64,000 nucleotides of DNA from positions 267,671 to 331,670 of the forward strand of contig JBMNKK010000004.1 of assembly GCA_050952125.1 (NCBI GenBank), written 5' to 3'. Shown one piece after another: positions 464 to 33,544 of this stretch. The notes beneath the pieces are model-generated. The model made no database searches. It had not been told where the DNA came from and saw only the letters and a list, made by a program, of their open reading frames with translations. Source of the DNA: Bacillota bacterium. Lineage in GTDB: Bacteria > Bacillota > Sulfobacillia > Fermentithermobacillales > Fermentithermobacillaceae. Position numbers and translations under genes: made by a program. Position 1 is the stretch's first letter. The number at the start of each line of letters is the position of its first letter.

Positions 464-540
464 TGGCAGGCCCGGAGGGATTTGAACCCCCAACCATCGG
501 ATTTGGAGTCCGCCGCTCTACCTATTGGAGCTACGGGCCT
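464..540 (-). tRNA. trnW: tRNA-Trp (anticodon CCA), CCA 3' end encoded
   Basis: Cloverleaf read by eye: AGGCCCGUAGCUCCAAUAGGUAGAGCGGCGGACUCCAAAUCCGAUGGUUGGGGGUUCAAAUCCCUCCGGGCCUGCCA. The anticodon loop is CU-CCA-AA, and the position between rpmG and secE is classic. Confidence 0.85.
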
Positions 541-549
541 GTACACAGT

Positions 550-711
550 CTACCTGGTTTCCCGGTGGGCCGTGTGAGTACGGCAGAACCGGCAATACTT
601 CCGAAGTTCAAGTCGCCCGGAATGAGACTTCTTGTTCTTCATTGTCGTGTAATTGCGCTGCTTGCATTCCTGGCAAGCCAGGGTCACGACCTCTGTAGTT
701 CCTTTAGCCAC
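550..711 (-). CDS. rpmG: 50S ribosomal protein L33
   Basis: Track ORF 550..747. The likely true start is the GTG preceded by a GGGAGGGG RBS, giving [28 protein letters not shown]...[14 protein letters not shown], the L33 zinc-ribbon CxxC...CxxC motif. Confidence 0.8.
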
Positions 712-830
712 GTGCTTCCCCTCCCATCCCGGAAAAAACACCTGCAAACGAGTCTAGCACAGGCTCTCGTGCAGTGTCAATTCAGCATATTCGCCTCCGG
801 GACCGCCGAAACTCTTGTCACAGATCAAAA

Positions 831-906
831 TGGAGCTCGCAACCAGAATCGAACTGGTGACCTCATCCTTACCAAGGATGCGCTCTGCCGACTGAGCTAT
901 GCGAGC
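831..906 (-). tRNA. trnT: tRNA-Thr (anticodon GGU)
   Basis: GCUCGCAUAGCUCAGUCGGCAGAGCGCAUCCUUGGUAAGGAUGAGGUCACCAGUUCGAUUCUGGUUGCGAGCUCCA read from the reverse strand. Anticodon loop CU-GGU-AA. Confidence 0.85.
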
Positions 907-921
907 ACCACAAAGATGGCG

Positions 922-999
<78 letters not shown>

Positions 1000-1030
1000 A
1001 CGATACACTGTTCAAGCTGTCAAATTTGGT

Positions 1031-1116
1031 TGGTGGAGAGGGCAGGATTTGAACCTGCGAAGGCGTCTGCCAGCAGATTTACAGTCTGTCCCCTTTGGCC
1101 ACTTGGGTACCTCTCC
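1031..1116 (-). tRNA. trnY: tRNA-Tyr (anticodon GUA), long variable arm
   Basis: GGAGAGGUACCCAAGUGGCCAAAGGGGACAGACUGUAAAUCUGCUGGCAGACGCCUUCGCAGGUUCAAAUCCUGCCCUCUCCACCA. Class II tRNA with anticodon GUA. Confidence 0.85.
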
Positions 1117-1295: not shown

Positions 1296-3083
1296 CTAGG
1301 CCTTATGATCGGTCATCGCGAGAAACTCGGGCAAGTCCGACAAGACCAAGTCGATCGCGCTCTGCCAGAAGTCCTTGCGGGTCAGATCGGCCCCGATGTG
1401 CTTTTTGGCAAGGTCCTCAACTCGCATGCGGCCGGTATCCTGCAAGAGTCCGATATACCTGTCCTCAAACATCCTGCCTGCTTCCTTTGCCCACGAGTAC
1501 ACGCCCGCGCTGAACAGGAAACCAAAAGTGTACGGGAAGTTGTAGAAGGGCACTCTGGTGTTGTAGAAGTGCAGTTTGGATGCCCAGAAATGCGGATGAT
1601 AAGTATCGAGCGCCCCGGCGAAAGCCTCTTTCTGCGCTTCGGTCATGAGCTCATTTAGCGCCTGTACGCTGACCATACCCTTCTTCCTTGCCTCGTAAAA
1701 CCGCGTCTCGAAGAGGAATCTGGATTGGATATTCATAAGCAGCGACACGGCCCTTTGCAGTTTGTCGTCCACCAGGAGGAGGCGTTCATCATCGTTCTTT
1801 GCCGCCTTCACCGCGGCGTCCGCCACCACCATCTCTGAGAATGTGGAAGCCGTCTCAGCAACGTTCATGGCATACTGCTGAGATATGGGCGGAAGATCAT
1901 TCATCACTGACTGGTGGAAAGCGTGTCCCAGTTCATGAGCTACCGTCGCCACGTTACCCAAAGTTCCCGAGAAGGTGACGAAGATACGCGATTCCCTGGA
2001 TAGGGGGAAGCTCGTGCAGAACCCTCCCATCCTCTTACCCGGACGATCCTCAGACTCAATCCAGCGGTTTTCAAACGCTCGTGTCGCGAGGCCGGCCATC
2101 TTTGGGCTCACACGGCTAAACTGCTCTACTATGAACGCGGCGGCATCGTCGTAGCTCATCTTGCTGTCAGACTTGCCGACAGGCGCATCGAGGTCTTGCC
2201 AACCCAGTTTGTCGAGGCGGAGCAGCTTCTTCTTTCTCTGCATGTAAGTCACTAGCCGGTCTTTGTTGCTGTCGATGGTGTCCCACATCGCATCCAGAGT
2301 GTCTCGTGTCATGCGATTGTTTTCGAGAGGTTCCTTCAGTACCGAGTCCCAACCCCTCCTGCGGTACAGCGACAGCCTGTACCCGGCTAGACGGTTGAGG
2401 GCCAAGGCGCACAGATCGGCTTCTTTAGCCCACGCTTCCTCCCAGCGCTCCATAATGTGAGCTCTCACGGCAGGGTCGGGCCCGGACATTCTGTTGGCCG
2501 CCTGTCCGGGAGACAGAGTGACTTCCTTGCCGTTCTCGGTCACCGTTATCGACATCCGTCCGGTAACGAGATCGTACAAGTCCGACCATCCCTGGTAGCC
2601 GTCAATGGAAAGCTCGTTGACCAAGATCTCCTGCTCGGTGGGAAGCATATCCTTGGTCCGCGTTCTACGCTCGTTCAAGTTGAATGCAAGGGGGGCGAGC
2701 TCCTTAGTGGACATCAGGGACCGCCACTCATCCTCGGAAACGGCCAAGATCTGCTGGTCCAGCACGGTCATAGCCGAGGCGAATCCGGCCTGAATCTCCC
2801 TAACTCTGCCGCCTACCACCCGGCTCTGCCGGTCACCGACATCTTGTGCATTCAGGCAGGAGATGAAAGCCCCGCTCTGTCTCAACCTCTTGGTGAGGTC
2901 CTGAAGGAGAGTTATCCTATCGACCCATCCTGAAAGGTCCTGCGGAACTCCACCCGACACATCGTCTCGGAATGCTCGTACGTCCGCCTCAAGGCAGTCC
3001 AGAAAAGCTGCGAACTCTCTAGAATGGCTACCACCAGGAAAGAAAACATCCAGGTCCCAGGTTTCAGGTAAGTTCTTGAACAC
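1296..3083 (-). CDS. pepF: Oligoendopeptidase F (M3B family zinc metallopeptidase)
   Basis: 595 aa with the HELGHAFH zinc-binding motif. The N-terminal and C-terminal regions are typical of PepF. Confidence 0.85.
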   Translation of the reverse strand: MFKNLPETWDLDVFFPGGSHSREFAAFLDCLEADVRAFRDDVSGGVPQDLSGWVDRITLLQDLTKRLRQSGAFISCLNAQDVGDRQSRVVGGRVREIQAGFASAMTVLDQQILAVSEDEWRSLMSTKELAPLAFNLNERRTRTKDMLPTEQEILVNELSIDGYQGWSDLYDLVTGRMSITVTENGKEVTLSPGQAANRMSGPDPAVRAHIMERWEEAWAKEADLCALALNRLAGYRLSLYRRRGWDSVLKEPLENNRMTRDTLDAMWDTIDSNKDRLVTYMQRKKKLLRLDKLGWQDLDAPVGKSDSKMSYDDAAAFIVEQFSRVSPKMAGLATRAFENRWIESEDRPGKRMGGFCTSFPLSRESRIFVTFSGTLGNVATVAHELGHAFHQSVMNDLPPISQQYAMNVAETASTFSEMVVADAAVKAAKNDDERLLLVDDKLQRAVSLLMNIQSRFLFETRFYEARKKGMVSVQALNELMTEAQKEAFAGALDTYHPHFWASKLHFYNTRVPFYNFPYTFGFLFSAGVYSWAKEAGRMFEDRYIGLLQDTGRMRVEDLAKKHIGADLTRKDFWQSAIDLVLSDLPEFLAMTDHKA

Positions 3084-3171: not shown

Positions 3172-3897
3172 CTATTTCTTGTTGTCAGTCATCTCAAACA
3201 GACCGCGAGTGTAAATGATCGGTTCCACGTACAAGATCCCTTTGTTAGGCTCATCCAGCTGGAGTCCCTCGCTCAAAGCATCCACCACTTTGCCAACTAA
3301 GTCGTTCGGCATGAGGATGATAACGAGTTCCTTTTCCGGTTCGATCTTCACTCCAAACAGGCTTGTGGCTATCTCAGCGCCTGCACCGCGCCCATGCAGA
3401 ATGGTGCCCCCTCGCACGCCGGCTTTACGCGCAATATCCATCACGTCACTCGCCAAACCGCGATCGACTATCACCGTCAGTTTCTTGAACATGCTCTCTT
3501 CCTCCAGACATTCGCCTGTATCCATGACGCCTTGCTCATGAGCTGTGCCCTGTCCTTCGAGTCCAACTGCACCGATGACCGGTGTAGTGTAGGCAATGCC
3601 GTGTTGACCGGGCTTTGAAAGCTGGAGCGCTTCGTCGAGATAGTCCATGGTCTCTTTCGCCTTTTCCTTCTTCAACAGGAGTTGCACGATATCTTTCCTT
3701 TGATCCTTGATCCCGAACAACTGCAGAACGGTGCTGCTCACCGTGCCTTTTCCCATGATGACTATGCCGCCTCGGATCCCTCGCTCTTCAACGAGGCGGA
3801 CACACCTATGGCTCTGGTTCTCGCTGAGGATCAACGTAAGAACCTGCAGAGCCCCAACATTCGGAACGTGGTTTTGATTATCCATGGTTACCTCCAA
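3172..3897 (-). CDS. Tandem P-II (GlnB-like) domain signal-transduction protein
   Basis: 241 aa with two repeated ~110-aa modules (..LQVLTLILSENQSHRCVRLVEERGIRGGIVIMGKG.. and ..KKLTVIVDRGLASDVMDIARKAGVRGGTILHGRG..) resembling P-II folds. It overlaps and is co-directional with the upstream membrane protein. Confidence 0.6.
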   Translation of the reverse strand: MEVTMDNQNHVPNVGALQVLTLILSENQSHRCVRLVEERGIRGGIVIMGKGTVSSTVLQLFGIKDQRKDIVQLLLKKEKAKETMDYLDEALQLSKPGQHGIAYTTPVIGAVGLEGQGTAHEQGVMDTGECLEEESMFKKLTVIVDRGLASDVMDIARKAGVRGGTILHGRGAGAEIATSLFGVKIEPEKELVIILMPNDLVGKVVDALSEGLQLDEPNKGILYVEPIIYTRGLFEMTDNKK

Positions 3898-5395
3898 TTG
3901 TTCCCGCTTGGAGACTCTTAGTCTTTGCCGCCTTGCGTGTTCTCACCTGATAGAGTGCGCCTAATAGCTCAAGTGCAATAATGGGCATCATGGCAACGAT
4001 CGCGATCATGCCGAACCCGTCTGCCACCAGGTCCGCCGAAGGGACTTGAGCTGCTATGCCCTGAACAAAAGCCAAGGAGAAGGTGGCCGTCATGGGTCCG
4101 GAAGCAACGCCGCCTGCATCAAAGGCCATCCCGACGAACAACTCGGGCACAAAGTAGGCGAAGACTACAGCAAGCCCAAATCCGGGCAGCAAATACATCC
4201 ATAGCTTAAGACCGGGCACGAAGATCCGCAAGGCGGACATGAAAATGGACAGCCCCACTGCAACAGACAGGAATAGGAAAACCATCGACCTCTTGACGAA
4301 CCCGCCTGTAACGCTTTCGACCTGGTGGGTCAAGACGTGAACGGCAGGCTCGGCCAGCACGGTCGCCAGGCCGAGAAAAAGTGCCGTGACAAGGGTCGGT
4401 ACTTTCGACTCCATCGAAGCGAGCTGTATCCCGATCCGGGTGCCGACTTCCATAAAACCGCCGTTCACACCCAACAGAAACACTACGAGGCCAAAAAAGG
4501 TTAGGGCCAAGCCTCGCGCGATGTCGAATACACGGCTCCTTCTTTGCTTGAAAGCGAACACTTGAAACAGGATATAGACAACGACGATGGGCAAAAGTGA
4601 AACCATCGATTCCTTAGCAAGCGGCAGGAGCTTAGAGCCGTATATCTCCAGCAAGTTCGCGCTTGTGATGGTCTCCTCAGGCAGTACGCCGTTCAGCTTG
4701 TCTATCCCGAAGATCAAACCTGTAACCAGAACCCCGAGGATCGCTCCGGTAGATGAAATGCCGACCAGGCCAAAGCTGTCCGCCTCGCTGGATTTGTCAG
4801 ACTTCATGGCTGAAATGCCTGCCGCTAAAGCTAACATAAAAGGGACAGTCACCGCGCCTGTAGTCGCCCCTGAAGCATCGAATGCAATAGCGATGAAATC
4901 GGATGATGAGAAAAGCGACAGAAGGAGAATAAGGCCATAGGCAGCCGCAAACACATGCTTGAGGCGTACACCCTTCAGTATGCGCAGCATTCCCAAAGTC
5001 ATCATAACCGCGAGTCCAATCGAGACAACAACAACCATCAAAATGCGACCAAACTGCCCCGCAGTCACGCTTTCCACCTGGCCGGCCAGGATATGGAGGT
5101 CGGGCTCGGCGTATGAAATGAAAAAACCGAGAACCAAACAGATGGTGATAACGACGGCAAAGCTCCTGGAGTGAACCAGAGTGTTACCGATACCTCGCCC
5201 GATAGGTTCCAAGCCCTGGTCTATACCGAACAGAAACGTCGTCAAACCGATAATGATAAGTACTGAACCCAAGAGGAAAGCCTGCAGCATCGAGCTATCC
5301 AGAGGACTTACGGTGAAGTGAAGGATCAATACGATCAATGTAATAGGTAGAACAGAGCTCAGTACTTCTTTTAGTTTATCTATTAGGGCATCCAA
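3878..5395 (-). CDS. Polytopic membrane protein, duplicated DUF1538-like permease (function unknown)
   Basis: 505 aa, highly hydrophobic with an internal duplication. Recollection that DUF1538 proteins are characteristically encoded next to P-II-like genes; family assignment from memory, needs an HMM check. Confidence 0.5.
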   Translation of the reverse strand: MDALIDKLKEVLSSVLPITLIVLILHFTVSPLDSSMLQAFLLGSVLIIIGLTTFLFGIDQGLEPIGRGIGNTLVHSRSFAVVITICLVLGFFISYAEPDLHILAGQVESVTAGQFGRILMVVVVSIGLAVMMTLGMLRILKGVRLKHVFAAAYGLILLLSLFSSSDFIAIAFDASGATTGAVTVPFMLALAAGISAMKSDKSSEADSFGLVGISSTGAILGVLVTGLIFGIDKLNGVLPEETITSANLLEIYGSKLLPLAKESMVSLLPIVVVYILFQVFAFKQRRSRVFDIARGLALTFFGLVVFLLGVNGGFMEVGTRIGIQLASMESKVPTLVTALFLGLATVLAEPAVHVLTHQVESVTGGFVKRSMVFLFLSVAVGLSIFMSALRIFVPGLKLWMYLLPGFGLAVVFAYFVPELFVGMAFDAGGVASGPMTATFSLAFVQGIAAQVPSADLVADGFGMIAIVAMMPIIALELLGALYQVRTRKAAKTKSLQAGTIGGNHG

Positions 5396-5637
5396 GCCAA
5401 CACCTCATTCTCACGGTAATTAACGTAGATAATTAGGCATACGATTGTTTTCTTTTGATTAACCCAAATGCTCATTCATCAGCAAGACTAATGCAATATC
5501 CATTTAATTGTGACCGTCCCATGTTTGATTGTCAATCAAGGGCCGACCAGGCAGATCAGGAGTTGAGGCAGTATGAATTGGGCCTCCGGCAGGAGTCACA
5601 AGAGCCGGAGCGAACCCTGAGTTTGAGGTGATGATAG

Positions 5638-6957
5638 TTGGTAAGGAAGTGCAAGGATCGGTTCGACCTGGCAGTCACCGGAGACTCGTTTCTGGCCACG
5701 CGGATATCGTGTTATGACGATCCGGACTTCTTGGCGGTCTTCGATATCATACGAAAGCATACGGCGGGTTTCACAAATCTTGAGGTCCTGCTGAACGACT
5801 GGAAAGGGATACCTGCTGCCGACAGCGGCGGCACTTACGCCGGCGCGTCCAGCTCTCTTGTAGACGAGTTCAAGTGGGCAGGATTTCACATGGTCTCGCG
5901 GGCAAACAACCACTCTCTGGACTACTCCTATGAAGGGCTCCGCAGGACGACAGAAGTCCTGGACAAAGCCGGCATCTGCCATGCGGGAGTCGGCGAAAAT
6001 CTCGCTGCCGCGCGCGAGCCCGCGTACCTTGAAACGCCTAAGGGTCGAGCGGCCCTGCTCTCTGCCAGTTCCACTTTCGCTCCGTGGGGCCGAGCGGGAC
6101 ATCAGAGGCCCGACTTCCAGGGACGTCCGGGGTTGTCGCCTGTCAGGTACTCAACGTATTACTCGGTGACTAGGGAAGAGTTCGATTTCCTCAAGAAAAT
6201 GGAAGAGTCGATGGGCATCTCGGAGCTGAAAGCCCAAGCCAAGAAAGCCGGCTACCTCAAAGAGAGAGACAATGAACTGGTCTTCTCAGGGCTCCGGTTT
6301 GTGCTGGGAGACAAGAGCGGGATACACACAGTGCCAAACAGCTACGACGTGGCCGAGATCACAAAGTGGATCAAGGACGCCAAACGCCAGGCCGACTGGG
6401 TCTTCTACACCCTACACGCCCACGAAGCGCACCTTAAGAGAGAGGTTCCGGCCGAGTTCATAGAGACGTTCGCCAGGGCGTGCATAGACGCCGGCGCAGA
6501 CGCGTTCATCGGACACGGGCCTCACGTCCTCCGGGGAATTGAGATCTACCGGGGCAAACCGATCTTCTACAGCCTCGGCAACTTCATCTTCCAGAACGAC
6601 TTGATCCGCAAACACCCGCAGGACATCTACGACAAGGTCGGGCAGGGGCTCACGATGGGATCGACCCCGGCCGACATGTACGACGCCCGCAGCAGAAACG
6701 ATACCAGAGGTTTCCCTTCAGACGTCGCATACTGGGAGAGCGTTCTGGGATCCTTGGAGTTCGCCGGAGGCGAGTTCCGCCGGGCTACTCTATACCCGTT
6801 GTACCTGGGATGGGACAATCCGCGCTCCCAGAGAGGCAGGCCCACTCTGGCGCGCGAGGAAATCGCGAAGAGAATCCTTGAGAGGCTTCAGACTCTTTCG
6901 GAACCTTACGGCACCAATCTCCGGATCGAGGGAGAAGTAGGGATAATCGAAGTCTAG
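5638..6957 (+). CDS. capA: CapA/PgsA-family metallophosphoesterase (poly-gamma-glutamate capsule biosynthesis-like)
   Basis: 439 aa with ..LAVTGDSFLATR.. and ..SRANNHSLDYSYEGL.. motifs typical of the CapA PGA_cap domain. TTG start with a GAGGTG RBS 8 nt upstream. Confidence 0.7.
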   Translation: MVRKCKDRFDLAVTGDSFLATRISCYDDPDFLAVFDIIRKHTAGFTNLEVLLNDWKGIPAADSGGTYAGASSSLVDEFKWAGFHMVSRANNHSLDYSYEGLRRTTEVLDKAGICHAGVGENLAAAREPAYLETPKGRAALLSASSTFAPWGRAGHQRPDFQGRPGLSPVRYSTYYSVTREEFDFLKKMEESMGISELKAQAKKAGYLKERDNELVFSGLRFVLGDKSGIHTVPNSYDVAEITKWIKDAKRQADWVFYTLHAHEAHLKREVPAEFIETFARACIDAGADAFIGHGPHVLRGIEIYRGKPIFYSLGNFIFQNDLIRKHPQDIYDKVGQGLTMGSTPADMYDARSRNDTRGFPSDVAYWESVLGSLEFAGGEFRRATLYPLYLGWDNPRSQRGRPTLAREEIAKRILERLQTLSEPYGTNLRIEGEVGIIEV

Positions 6958-7271: not shown

Positions 7272-8669
7272 CTATTTGCGGGGGCTTCCGGCATACCTGA
7301 TGTTGGCGAACTCAGCTATGTCTTTGTCTATTGTTACTAGGTCTCCGCGGTTGAGTTCGCTGGCGGCCTTCTTGCCGACAGCCTGGATGGCAAGCTTCAT
7401 CTCTTCCTTGCACGACTTAAGGAAGTTGGCCAGACTGGCCGCCGCCTTGTCGACGTCGAGCTTATCGGCATACCTGCCGGTATACAAGGCAATCTGAGCC
7501 GGTGCTGCTTTAGGCACCACCTCCCTGGCCTGGGTGTGAATAGCAGCCAACACCGCGATAGACCCGATATACACGGCGTCGGCTCCTAGAGCCAGCGCTT
7601 TTAGGAACTCGCCGGGAGTCTTCAGTCCGCCTGCGGCGATAACGCTGAAGCGCTGGCGAATACCCTTTGCCTTAAGCCAATCCACAGTCCGGACCAGGCC
7701 GTAAAATGTCGGAAGACCGACATCATCCTCCAATGTGGGAGGAGCCACCGCCGTTCCTCCCTCAGCCCCGTCTACGACGATGAAGTCGGCCCCGGTCTTG
7801 GCGATAACCTCGAGTTCAAGCTCGATGAAATCTGTGGCCGCGATCTTCACACCCACGGGCACGTCGTAGGTGGCCTTCAGGTCATTCACAAGCTTGATGA
7901 TCGCTTCCGGTGTGTCCTTACCTTGGTGCCGCGAATAGATGACGCCATCCTCACCTTCTTTTAGACCCAGTGTTTGTCGCAGGTGATCGCCGATGGTCGC
8001 CGAAGCGATGGTAGACTCGACACCTCCGCCAAAAGCCCCCTGGCCAAACTGCACTTCTATGGCATCGAGTTGGCCGAGATCCTCTGGCCCGCTGAGGAAG
8101 TGGCCGCGATTGTACTGGCCCACCATATACAGGGCGAGTTCGCGCGTTTCCTTCGCCAGGCCCGACTCGCCCGTGTTGGTGGACGTGCCGGCCGCGGCCG
8201 CACCTTTTGCCAGAGCCATCTTAAGCTTCAGGCTTAGAGAACCGCCGTAGGACATTGCCGTGATCATTATGGGAATGCGAAGCCGTAACGGCCTTCCGGC
8301 ATTGGGTCCGATAACCGTTGTCATGTCGATATCTTTCAGGTCGGCTGTGGGAAGGTGGTGAAGCTGTCGGGGGTTCAAGAGGATCTTGTGCCAGGGAGAC
8401 AGGACGATAGGGCTTCCGAACGGCCTTTGGAGCGGCATGCCCAGTTGAGCCCTCATACCCGCCTCCACAATGGCTCGCGGTGTGAGCTTTTCAGCCACGG
8501 TAACCAACTCAAAGGGGTTATTCGGGTAATCCTCAGTGAGGAGTACTTTCAGAACTTCATCAACTAAGGGATCCGCAAGCATCTCTGCTAACCGGCTGGT
8601 CACGATAACCGCCTCCAATACGGGACTTCTCAAGGAAGTATTCCCACGCGGGGCGGAAAGAGTCGGCAC
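7272..8669 (-). CDS. FMN-binding glutamate synthase-family protein (GltB domain-2-like, stand-alone)
   Basis: 465 aa with ..IPIMITAMSYGGSLS.. and ..GADFIVVDGAEGGTAVAP.. motifs typical of the TIM-barrel FMN/FeS domain of glutamate synthase large subunits. Confidence 0.65.
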   Translation of the reverse strand: MPTLSAPRGNTSLRSPVLEAVIVTSRLAEMLADPLVDEVLKVLLTEDYPNNPFELVTVAEKLTPRAIVEAGMRAQLGMPLQRPFGSPIVLSPWHKILLNPRQLHHLPTADLKDIDMTTVIGPNAGRPLRLRIPIMITAMSYGGSLSLKLKMALAKGAAAAGTSTNTGESGLAKETRELALYMVGQYNRGHFLSGPEDLGQLDAIEVQFGQGAFGGGVESTIASATIGDHLRQTLGLKEGEDGVIYSRHQGKDTPEAIIKLVNDLKATYDVPVGVKIAATDFIELELEVIAKTGADFIVVDGAEGGTAVAPPTLEDDVGLPTFYGLVRTVDWLKAKGIRQRFSVIAAGGLKTPGEFLKALALGADAVYIGSIAVLAAIHTQAREVVPKAAPAQIALYTGRYADKLDVDKAAASLANFLKSCKEEMKLAIQAVGKKAASELNRGDLVTIDKDIAEFANIRYAGSPRK

Positions 8670-8705: not shown

Positions 8706-8781
8706 GGAGCCAGCGAAGGGGATCGAACCCTTAACCTATTGATTACAAATCAATTGCTCTACCATTGAGCTACGCTGGCTC
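8706..8781 (-). tRNA. trnT: tRNA-Thr (anticodon UGU), 3' CCA not encoded
   Basis: GAGCCAGCGUAGCUCAAUGGUAGAGCAAUUGAUUUGUAAUCAAUAGGUUAAGGGUUCGAUCCCCUUCGCUGGCUCC. The anticodon loop is UU-UGU-AA and the sequence is followed by AAU rather than CCA. Confidence 0.75.
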
Positions 8782-14561: not shown

Positions 14562-14637
14562 GGGCGTGTGGCTCAGTTGGGAGAGCACTCGGTTCGCATC
14601 CGAGAGGTCGGGGGTTCGAATCCCCCCACGTCCACCA
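14562..14637 (+). tRNA. trnA: tRNA-Ala (anticodon CGC) with G3:U70 identity pair, CCA encoded
   Basis: GGGCGUGUGGCUCAGUUGGGAGAGCACUCGGUUCGCAUCCGAGAGGUCGGGGGUUCGAAUCCCCCCACGUCCACCA. The acceptor stem GGGCGUG pairs with CACGUCC, giving G3:U70, and the anticodon loop is UU-CGC-AU. Confidence 0.85.
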
Positions 14638-28562: not shown

Positions 28563-28676
<114 letters not shown>

Positions 28677-28739
28677 TTTTGTCCTTTCCACCCTCTTTGG
28701 GCGGACAACTTAAGAGAATTTGCGGAACTAACTTAAGCG

Positions 28740-31730
<2,991 letters not shown>

Positions 31731-31877
31731 AGGATTCTTCTTGAATCCTAAACTCGCGCTTGTTACTTCTCGCGACTTCTCTTAAGTTGTCAAGGACCAG
31801 TGATGGAGTCCTCTCCATCGTAGGACGTCAGTCCTCGAAGACCGAACAGCGTATTAGAGAACCTCAAGAGGTCTCCA

Positions 31878-33408
<1,531 letters not shown>

Positions 33409-33544
33409 CGTTACACCTTTTCCTCAAGGTCCGTAGAGTCGCTCGCGGTAACCGCGAGCCTTCTGGACTCAAAGGTTCTCTTACGCTGTTCAGTTTTCAA
33501 GGACCGACTTCCTTGGGCGCCCCCTCTCGCGGGGCGCAAGGGTT

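Follow-up and report, generated by a model that had tools for sequence, protein, structure and literature searches.

Few signal processors are as widespread as the P-II proteins. In the AmtB-GlnK pair, which combines an ammonium channel with a P-II protein, the cytoplasmic P-II plugs or releases the transporter according to the effectors bound to it. To our knowledge, few transporter classes have dedicated P-II partners, namely AmtB, SbtA and possibly the Dab-type pumps. Here, we describe a further candidate from a member of the Bacillota (Fermentithermobacillaceae; GenBank assembly GCA_050952125.1, contig JBMNKK010000004.1, positions 267,671 to 331,670), and the whole stretch of 64,000 nucleotides that was analysed is referred to as the window. 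Two adjacent genes on its minus strand encode a 505-aa membrane protein with two DUF1538 domains and a protein in which two P-II-like domains are joined in a single chain (a tandem P-II). We lean slightly towards reading the pair as a secondary transporter that is gated by P-II and probably exchanges monovalent cations for protons, with the tandem P-II as its dedicated regulator.

Among DUF1538 systems, only UmpAB of Halomonas zhaodongensis has been characterised. It consists of two 7-transmembrane (7-TM) proteins that form a heterodimer, and its Na+(Li+,K+)/H+ antiport activity, seen in everted vesicles, depends on pH (PMC5484666). The umpB gene is the last open reading frame (ORF) of the cloned UmpAB fragment, and P-II is not mentioned in that paper (PMC5484666). 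DUF1538 is also among the genome features that predict optimal growth pH, together with Mrp, Kdp and Trk (PMC13255231), and UmpAB has been invoked for salinity adaptation in cable bacteria (PMC12093952). A literature search returned no paper connecting DUF1538 with P-II, and no description of the near-obligate partnership, the inverted-repeat topology, the series of split, tandem and fused forms or the effector-triad loss reported below. One match, to Borrelia BB0017, was set aside as it relates to YitT/DUF2179, a separate family of membrane-bound P-II-like proteins. Neither sequence is new in itself, and the genes are routinely annotated as 'DUF1538 domain-containing protein' and 'P-II family nitrogen regulator'.

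Pairing of DUF1538 and P-II-like genes

The longest ORFs of the two genes, 3878..5395 (505 aa) and 3172..3897 (241 aa), both on the minus strand and with TTG starts, overlap by 20 nt. These are the values given in the original prediction, and they hold for the longest ORF. The likely P-II gene is shorter (3172..3885, minus strand). An ATG at 3885..3883 is preceded by the Shine-Dalgarno (SD) sequence GGAGG at 3895..3891, within the end of the transporter gene, with a spacer of 5 nt (3890..3886). The same start was chosen in an independent Joint Genome Institute (JGI) gene call (P0001, 237 aa, 100 % identical) and fits the N-termini of 38 homologues in an alignment. On these three grounds ATG 3885 is the preferred start, giving a protein of 237 aa and an overlap with the transporter gene end of only 8 nt (ATGGATAA). 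An identical 505-aa copy of the transporter was also found among the JGI proteins (P0121). Upstream, an SD-like GAGGTG (5401..5406, minus strand) was read 5 nt ahead of the transporter TTG, and a consensus scan gave a candidate sigma-70-like promoter, TTGACA-17-CACAAT (5507..5535, minus strand; 10/12 positions, a pattern match only), about 110 nt upstream of the transporter start. Because of the 8-nt overlap and the SD sequence inside the upstream gene, the two genes are probably translationally coupled and, as part of the reading that we slightly favour, would form a self-contained two-gene operon.

The association of the two genes was examined from both sides. From the P-II side, a search with an alignment of the tandem P-II, keeping one genome per species, gave 80 loci, and a JGI contig encoding identical proteins brought the number to 81. 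Most are from metagenome-assembled genomes (MAGs) of Clostridia, and Thermoclostridium caenicola, Caproiciproducens galactitolivorans, Aminivibrio and a Sphaerochaetaceae MAG are also represented. A fused DUF1538 gene lies directly upstream of the P-II gene in every one of them (81/81). From the transporter side, a tblastn search of plasmids returned nine records, five of which were inspected and classified, and a metagenome scan with three UmpB-like sequences added 80 further loci. These 85 loci were classified using hidden Markov models and four end too early to judge. In 79 of the 81 evaluable loci, which include split and fused transporter genes and range from Alphaproteobacteria to Clostridia, a P-II ORF lies directly downstream. 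The P-II gene is lacking at the other two, L107 (checked, and the only clear-cut exception) and L115. The ORF that follows the UmpB-like gene of L107 (202-1197) is small and, by eye, resembles a RelE/ParE-type toxin, which suggests a local rearrangement. Where PGAP annotation is available for the plasmid loci, the transporter and P-II genes overlap in four out of five.

The pairing is near-obligate and far beyond chance, and the adjacency seen in transporter/P-II regulatory pairs of the AmtB-GlnK and SbtA-SbtB type is found here at 81/81 and 79/81 loci. The gene-neighbourhood comparison called for in the original prediction therefore bears out its proposal of a transporter/P-II pair, as do the gene overlaps and the fusions of DUF1538 with P-II described below. 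No further conserved neighbour was found when 997 flanking ORFs from 81 loci were clustered, the next-largest family being present at 15/81 loci. The genes that directly flank the pair share no common function, and include those for acyltransferase, YitT, radical SAM, ABC-F and oxidoreductase proteins.

The same components were found in arrangements that form a graded series. Split umpA-like and umpB-like genes occur with one P-II gene for a protein of 105-130 aa (for example on Methylocystis rosea pGW6_2 and in Chelativorans), with two separate P-II genes (L098, L104 and L119) or with a tandem P-II gene (L111, L117, L137 and L143). The fused transporter gene is accompanied by separate N-type and C-type P-II genes at L124 and L131, and by a tandem P-II gene in the form seen in the window, which is the commonest in Clostridia. 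A library-wide profile search gave 322 clusters (50 % identity) at E<=1e-30, and among the best 150 listed of these most are 210-240 aa long.

Covalent links between the two components were also found. At L091 (3956-5026), an UmpB-like protein is fused to P-II (Pfam DUF1538 at residues 25-234 and P-II at residues 252-350). From the library-wide search, P0460 (709 aa) is a candidate single chain with the order DUF1538x2–P-IIx2, and P0434 (417 aa) one with the order DUF1538–P-IIx2, with domains assigned by Pfam. In all three the fusion point is the basic C-terminal tail of the transporter, and the cytoplasmic location predicted for that tail fits the position of the P-II fusion. Two further proteins from that search, P0365 (357 aa) and P0394 (345 aa), have three P-II-like domains per chain (N-type, C-type, C-type) and could each be a single-chain pseudo-trimer. 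The single-domain P-II partners combine motifs from both halves of the tandem protein, and this indicates that the tandem P-II arose by duplication of a P-II ancestor already associated with DUF1538.

Near-obligate adjacency, translational coupling and independent fusions together constitute strong genomic evidence that the transporter and the P-II form a physical and functional pair. We note that P-II proteins commonly have multiple targets and that SbtB also acts away from SbtA. By analogy, the tandem P-II might signal to other cellular targets, and the DUF1538 protein might chiefly be what senses for it, or anchors it, at the membrane, in a transceptor arrangement. Given the strict one-to-one pairing, with no other conserved neighbour, and the covalent fusions, which indicate that the transporter is the principal partner, we consider this highly improbable.

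The DUF1538 membrane protein and its predicted activity

The 505-aa protein matches Pfam DUF1538 (PF07556) in two full-length stretches (411.8 bits, cut-off 22.6; E 5.6e-124) and its halves are 30 % identical to each other (E 5e-27), so that its initial description as an internally duplicated, DUF1538-like membrane protein stands. NCBIfam UmpA (NF041627) matches residues 2-228 and UmpB (NF041628) matches residues 259-480, both below threshold, with scores of 167.8 and 141.5 bits against equivalog cut-offs of 490 and 500. The paired homologous 7-TM DUF1538 units of UmpAB are present as two repeats in a single chain, and repeat A aligns with UmpA-like proteins while repeat B aligns with UmpB-like proteins. 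By the NCBI criterion, the transporter is in the UmpAB superfamily and falls outside the functional subfamily of UmpA and UmpB.

The AlphaFold2 (AF2) model is all-helical and confident (predicted local distance difference test, pLDDT, 83.1; predicted template modelling score, pTM, 0.83). Deepening the alignment with a Vescimonas protein returned sequences at least 90 % identical to one another and added little diversity; the model was confident regardless. Repeat A (aa 1-229; 4709..5395, minus strand, as are the other segments) has seven predicted TM helices with the N-terminus inside, and is followed by an inter-repeat linker (aa 230-252; 4640..4708) that is modelled as coil with little helix and predicted to be extracellular. 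Repeat B (aa 253-480; 3956..4639) is followed by the C-terminal tail (aa 481-505; 3881..3955), which is predicted to be cytoplasmic.

The orientation of the repeats was assessed from the lysine and arginine (K+R) content of homologous loops in 60 homologues, using helix boundaries from the AF2 model. Loop L1-2 has a mean of 0.12 K+R in repeat A and 3.95 in repeat B, whereas the reverse applies to loop L4-5 (2.55 and 0.22) and to loop L6-7 (2.80 and 0.05). In the same homologues the C-terminal tail is strongly basic (mean 5.25 K+R) and the inter-repeat linker is acidic (mean net charge -2.2). The alternation is also seen in 119 fused proteins, and is less sharp in 26 split pairs. Because homologous loops carry opposite K+R loads, the positive-inside rule indicates 14 helices arranged as two 7-TM repeats inserted in opposite directions, with both termini predicted to be cytoplasmic.

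Every repeat, those of the alphaproteobacterial split forms among them, has an invariant Glu-Pro pair (AEP motif), Arg and Asp (FDAxG motif), together with several invariant glycines. The residues are E97-P98, R138 and D173 in repeat A and E349-P350, R390 and D426 in repeat B. In the model, the invariant Glu and Asp are placed at predicted helix breaks within the membrane, an arrangement that would be typical of ion-coupling sites. Neither a Foldseek search nor a PDB sequence search with the transporter revealed a solved relative.

The first gene would thus encode a single-chain version of a two-subunit secondary transporter of the UmpA/UmpB type, with inverted 7-TM repeats. On the basis of the analogy with UmpAB and the buried carboxylates, its most likely activity would be monovalent cation (Na+/K+/Li+)/H+ exchange. 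The original prediction had stated that the substrate of DUF1538 permeases is not established. For the family as a whole this is partly superseded, as Na+(Li+,K+)/H+ antiport has been reported for UmpAB (PMC5484666). The window protein, however, is not an UmpAB equivalog.

The scores far below the UmpA/UmpB cut-offs leave room for a different assignment, in which the architecture and the P-II gating are the same, the physiological substrate is bicarbonate or another small anion, ammonium or a small metabolite, and the antiport of UmpAB is a side activity. The best fold matches of the P-II domains, CPII and SbtB, belong to inorganic-carbon systems, and the substrate is not fixed by any conserved neighbour, riboswitch or solved transporter fold. 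Conserved neighbours were sought as a clue to the substrate in the clustering of flanking ORFs and none was found. Riboswitches or other leader RNAs were likewise discarded as a clue, since a relaxed Rfam search (E<=10) of the sequence ahead of the pair gave no match in the window, and the corresponding sequence at nine diverse loci gave none either; in the whole window, Rfam detected only rRNA and tRNA. However, cation/H+ antiport is the family's sole experimental datum (PMC5484666), the invariant buried Glu/Asp pairs fit a cation/proton site better than an anion site, and in about 160 loci the pair shows no linkage to genes for carbon fixation, nitrogen or any other pathway. We therefore regard a different substrate as unlikely, though it is the most serious of the competing explanations, and retain cation/proton exchange as the preferred activity.

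The tandem P-II-like protein and its predicted role

The two P-II domains first proposed for the downstream protein were recovered, by different routes. The C-terminal half passes the Pfam P-II (PF00543) threshold (38.8 bits, cut-off 25), whereas the N-terminal half alone falls below the gathering score and is identified by its homology to the C-terminal half (29 % identity, E 2e-15; hhalign probability of the N-domain against the C-domain profile 99.6 %). A PCC-domain match to the N-terminal half (22.5 bits, cut-off 25) was dismissed as a cross-match among small alpha/beta domains. The AF2 model (pLDDT 66.7, pTM 0.62) contains two beta-alpha-beta-beta-alpha-beta units, i.e. the double beta-alpha-beta, ferredoxin-like fold with T-loop and B-loop that is found in the P-II family. 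The T-loop-like segment of each unit has low confidence, and the T-loop region is modelled as a helix rather than a free loop. The N-terminal domain comprises aa 12-105 (3571..3852, minus strand, as for the following segments) and the C-terminal domain aa 130-231 (3193..3498). The linker between them (aa 106-129; 3499..3570) is disordered in the model (pLDDT <50) and variable and gapped in the alignment. The downstream protein has P-II folds and the membrane protein belongs to a family without a known regulator, so neither of the outcomes that would have told against the original prediction was encountered.

Foldseek searches of the PDB with the tandem P-II gave CPII, SbtB, GlnK (GlnK1) and GlnB as top matches, with TM-scores of 0.55-0.74 per domain. 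A profile of C-terminal and single domains matched 31 P-II chains in the PDB, the best being 9p1x_H (E 3.9e-8), and Synechococcus P-II was matched at 2e-5. The N-domain profile matched 9p1x_H only (E 5.8e-4). This chain, a 105-aa 'P-II family nitrogen regulatory protein', is presumably NifI1-like. PstA/DarA chains were absent from the 31 sequence matches and from the top 50 fold matches.

The C-terminal domain is highly conserved, with the motifs GVRGGTILHGRG, LFGVEIEPEKE and EPGKGILFVEP. The N-terminal domain is degenerate; GGT is replaced by GGI or GGM, and the counterpart of IEPEKE is IKDQRKD (family consensus IKSQKKE). Residues that contact ligands in canonical P-II proteins were compared using equivalences from a HMMER alignment to Synechococcus P-II, and their frequencies were determined in 284 domains (42 single domains, 121 tandem C-domains and 121 tandem N-domains). 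In the window protein, G160-T161 correspond to canonical M28-T29, G167 to G35, G169 to G37, A170 to R38, E171 to Q39, K185 to K58 and N/G214-K215-G216-I217 to G87-D88-G89-K90, and its T-loop falls short of the canonical length by about 5 residues.

The GGT motif (equivalent to G27-T29) is 78-100 % conserved in single and C-domains, with Thr replaced by Ile or Met in N-domains, and the K58 equivalent is 80-97 % conserved across all three classes. Overall, the glycine pocket (the GGT, G35/G37 and G87/G89 equivalents) and the K58 equivalent are 76-100 % conserved in single and C-terminal domains. In contrast, R38 is replaced by Ala and Q39 by Glu, so that the Mg-ATP/2-oxoglutarate site (R38, Q39 and K58) is incomplete, and the position of K90 is I, L or V, and never basic, in all 284 domains. 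A C-terminal Arg is confined to tandem C-domains (62 %). The canonical B-loop signature of GlnB and GlnK (PROSITE) is [ST]-x3-G-[DY]-G-[KR]-[IV]-[FW]-[LIVM], and the corresponding segment here, G/N-K-G-I-L-F/Y-V, does not conform to it. In canonical GlnB and GlnK the T-loop is modified by uridylylation of Tyr51 or phosphorylation of Ser49. The T-loop segment GAGAEIATSLFGVKIEPEK contains no Tyr, and its Ser and Thr positions vary among homologues, leaving no conserved modification site. Judged from these residues, an adenine/ribose-type glycine pocket is retained and the basic residues that hold triphosphate or 2-oxoglutarate are gone. The nucleotide-binding residues that were to be sought in the T- and B-loops are thus present in part, as the glycine pocket and the K58 equivalent, and missing in part, as the equivalents of R38, Q39 and K90. 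With these three lost, the ligand cannot be read by analogy.

The same losses, which affect all classes, raise the question of whether the P-II fold acts as a scaffold only, in which case the P-II-like protein would be a constitutive component with a structural role, for instance as a cytoplasmic cap or an assembly factor. The clearly degenerate N-terminal domain, the occurrence of covalent fusion to the transporter and the helix in place of a free loop in the modelled T-loop region all point the same way. However, the conservation of the glycine pocket and the K58 equivalent in single and C-domains indicates a retained binding cleft, UmpAB worked without P-II, and the other characterised transporter-linked P-II proteins, GlnK and SbtB, are ligand switches. 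A purely structural role is accordingly judged improbable.

Under the regulatory reading, which we prefer, the second gene would encode a cytoplasmic fused pair of P-II-like domains dedicated to the transporter. The tandem P-II would dock on the cytoplasmic face of the transporter beside its C-terminal tail, and the T-loop-like segment of the C-domain (HGRGAGAE…LFGVEIEPEKE) would open or block transport in response to a small molecule bound in the cleft between the domains. The degenerate N-domain would probably act as a scaffold, or provide a second, non-equivalent contact.

Several points weigh against this reading, to which we give only a slight preference. The link between the transporter and the tandem P-II comes from genomic comparison. 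UmpAB was active in Escherichia coli with no P-II gene on the clone (PMC5484666), which means that P-II is unnecessary for basal transport. The substrate assignment of UmpAB, from complementation of strain KNabc and vesicle assays, concerns one distant member of the family (PMC5484666), and the substrate of the window protein, which scores so far below the UmpA/UmpB cut-offs, could differ. A nucleotide ligand is not assured, given the replacement of R38 and Q39, the absence of any basic residue at the K90 position and the restriction of the C-terminal Arg to tandem C-domains. Finally, the model of the tandem P-II is only moderately confident (pLDDT 66.7).

P-II proteins form homotrimers whose ligand sites lie in the clefts between subunits, and a two-domain P-II chain alone cannot close a three-domain ring. 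The pseudo-trimer or hexamer put forward in the original prediction is, like regulation and the ligand, inferred. As a broader and more tentative proposal, DUF1538/UmpAB proteins may constitute a widespread secondary-transporter class, whose inverted 7+7 fold lacks any solved relative, and may have an obligate P-II clade of their own. That clade, lacking the ATP/2-oxoglutarate triad, may sense another signal (for example c-di-AMP, AMP/ADP or an ion), and in Clostridia its two-domain, heteromeric form may form a double trimer of six domains or some other oligomer outside the canonical type.

Surroundings of the pair and comparison with known systems

In the window, the P-II gene is followed after 89 nt by the start of a gene for a PepF-like M3 oligoendopeptidase (1296..3083, minus strand). 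There is no obvious terminator in the gap and read-through transcription is possible. This neighbour is shared only with L001, the contig that encodes identical DUF1538 and P-II proteins and probably comes from the same organism or one almost identical to it. On the other side, a PGA_cap (capsule synthesis/CapA-like) gene (5638..6957, plus strand) is divergent from the pair. The region beyond it, including 7272..8669 (minus strand), encodes a free-standing FMN domain protein of the glutamate-synthase type, followed by a sigma factor, a SpoU methylase, ThyX and an IspD-IspF fusion. The window also contains a complete rRNA operon (28563..33414, minus strand; 16S 31881..33414, 23S 28742..31706, 5S 28563..28672), a cluster of four tRNA genes at 467..1116 (minus strand) and further tRNA genes at 8708..8779 and 14562..14634.

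Three observations were made at other loci. In an Anaerovoracaceae MAG, 13 nt separate the end of a YitT/DUF2179 gene (L068:4327-5202, plus strand) from the DUF1538 gene downstream of it. Proteins of the YitT/DUF2179 family are also membrane proteins that carry a soluble P-II-like domain, and the proximity may be coincidence. On a Paraclostridium bifermentans plasmid, an unrelated guanidine-I riboswitch precedes sugE about 4 kb from the pair (L086:11242-11344). The contig names of split-type loci including L099, L106 and L119 (SL_..KL_..SED) suggest, as names only, an origin in soda-lake or saline sediment, and such an origin would fit a role in Na+/H+ homeostasis.

The loci compared indicate that members of the whole DUF1538/UmpAB family, from halophilic Proteobacteria to Clostridia of the gut and digesters, almost always have their own P-II-like gene, and the annotation 'P-II family nitrogen regulator' at these loci is probably misleading. 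We offer the hypothesis that cation and pH homeostasis, or another transport process, is tied through this partnership to the energy or second-messenger state of the cell. The split, tandem and covalently fused forms provide a natural series suited to structural work, and cultured carriers exist.

The pair shares with UmpAB the Pfam DUF1538 domain and the two paired homologous 7-TM units, the N-terminal half being UmpA-like and the C-terminal half UmpB-like. The units are two proteins in UmpAB and one fused chain here, and the scores are 168/142 bits where 490/500 are needed. UmpAB was described without a P-II partner, yet almost all of the split umpA/umpB-like loci examined carry one. As in AmtB-GlnK, a gene for a membrane transporter is followed by one for a dedicated P-II-family protein. 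However, the transporter folds are unrelated, and the P-II here has two domains, a shorter T-loop and neither the uridylylation Tyr nor R38, Q39 and K90. No nitrogen genes are found nearby, in the window or at the loci examined.

SbtA-SbtB, a Na+/bicarbonate symporter with a sensor of adenine nucleotides, cAMP and c-di-AMP, likewise places a P-II-like gene beside a Na+-coupled secondary transporter, and SbtB is among the top fold matches of the tandem P-II (6ntb and 6mmq). The transporter family is different, SbtB has a single domain, and there is no sequence match to SbtB at E<=0.01. The best structural match per domain is the carboxysome-associated CPII of Thiomonas (PDB 5d4l-5drk; E 3.4e-5, TM-score 0.6-0.7), which is also a weak sequence match (E 0.09) and is likewise encoded beside a membrane ion or carbon pump. 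CPII is a single domain that binds ADP/AMP and bicarbonate, and its partner genes and carboxysome context are not those found here.

In NifI1/NifI2, two P-II paralogues act as one hetero-oligomer, a precedent for the cooperation of two diverged P-II domains, and each half of the tandem protein has 9p1x_H as its best PDB sequence match. The two NifI proteins are separate chains, and their target is nitrogenase, not a transporter. The c-di-AMP-binding PstA/DarA proteins have a P-II fold, occur in Firmicutes and are linked to cation homeostasis signalling, and binding of c-di-AMP by the tandem P-II can be put forward as a hypothesis. However, they are not among its PDB sequence matches or top fold matches, and the loop lengths of PstA are reversed. 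The theme of a transporter with a P-II protein is a known one, to which the present locus and its relatives add a partnership specific to DUF1538.

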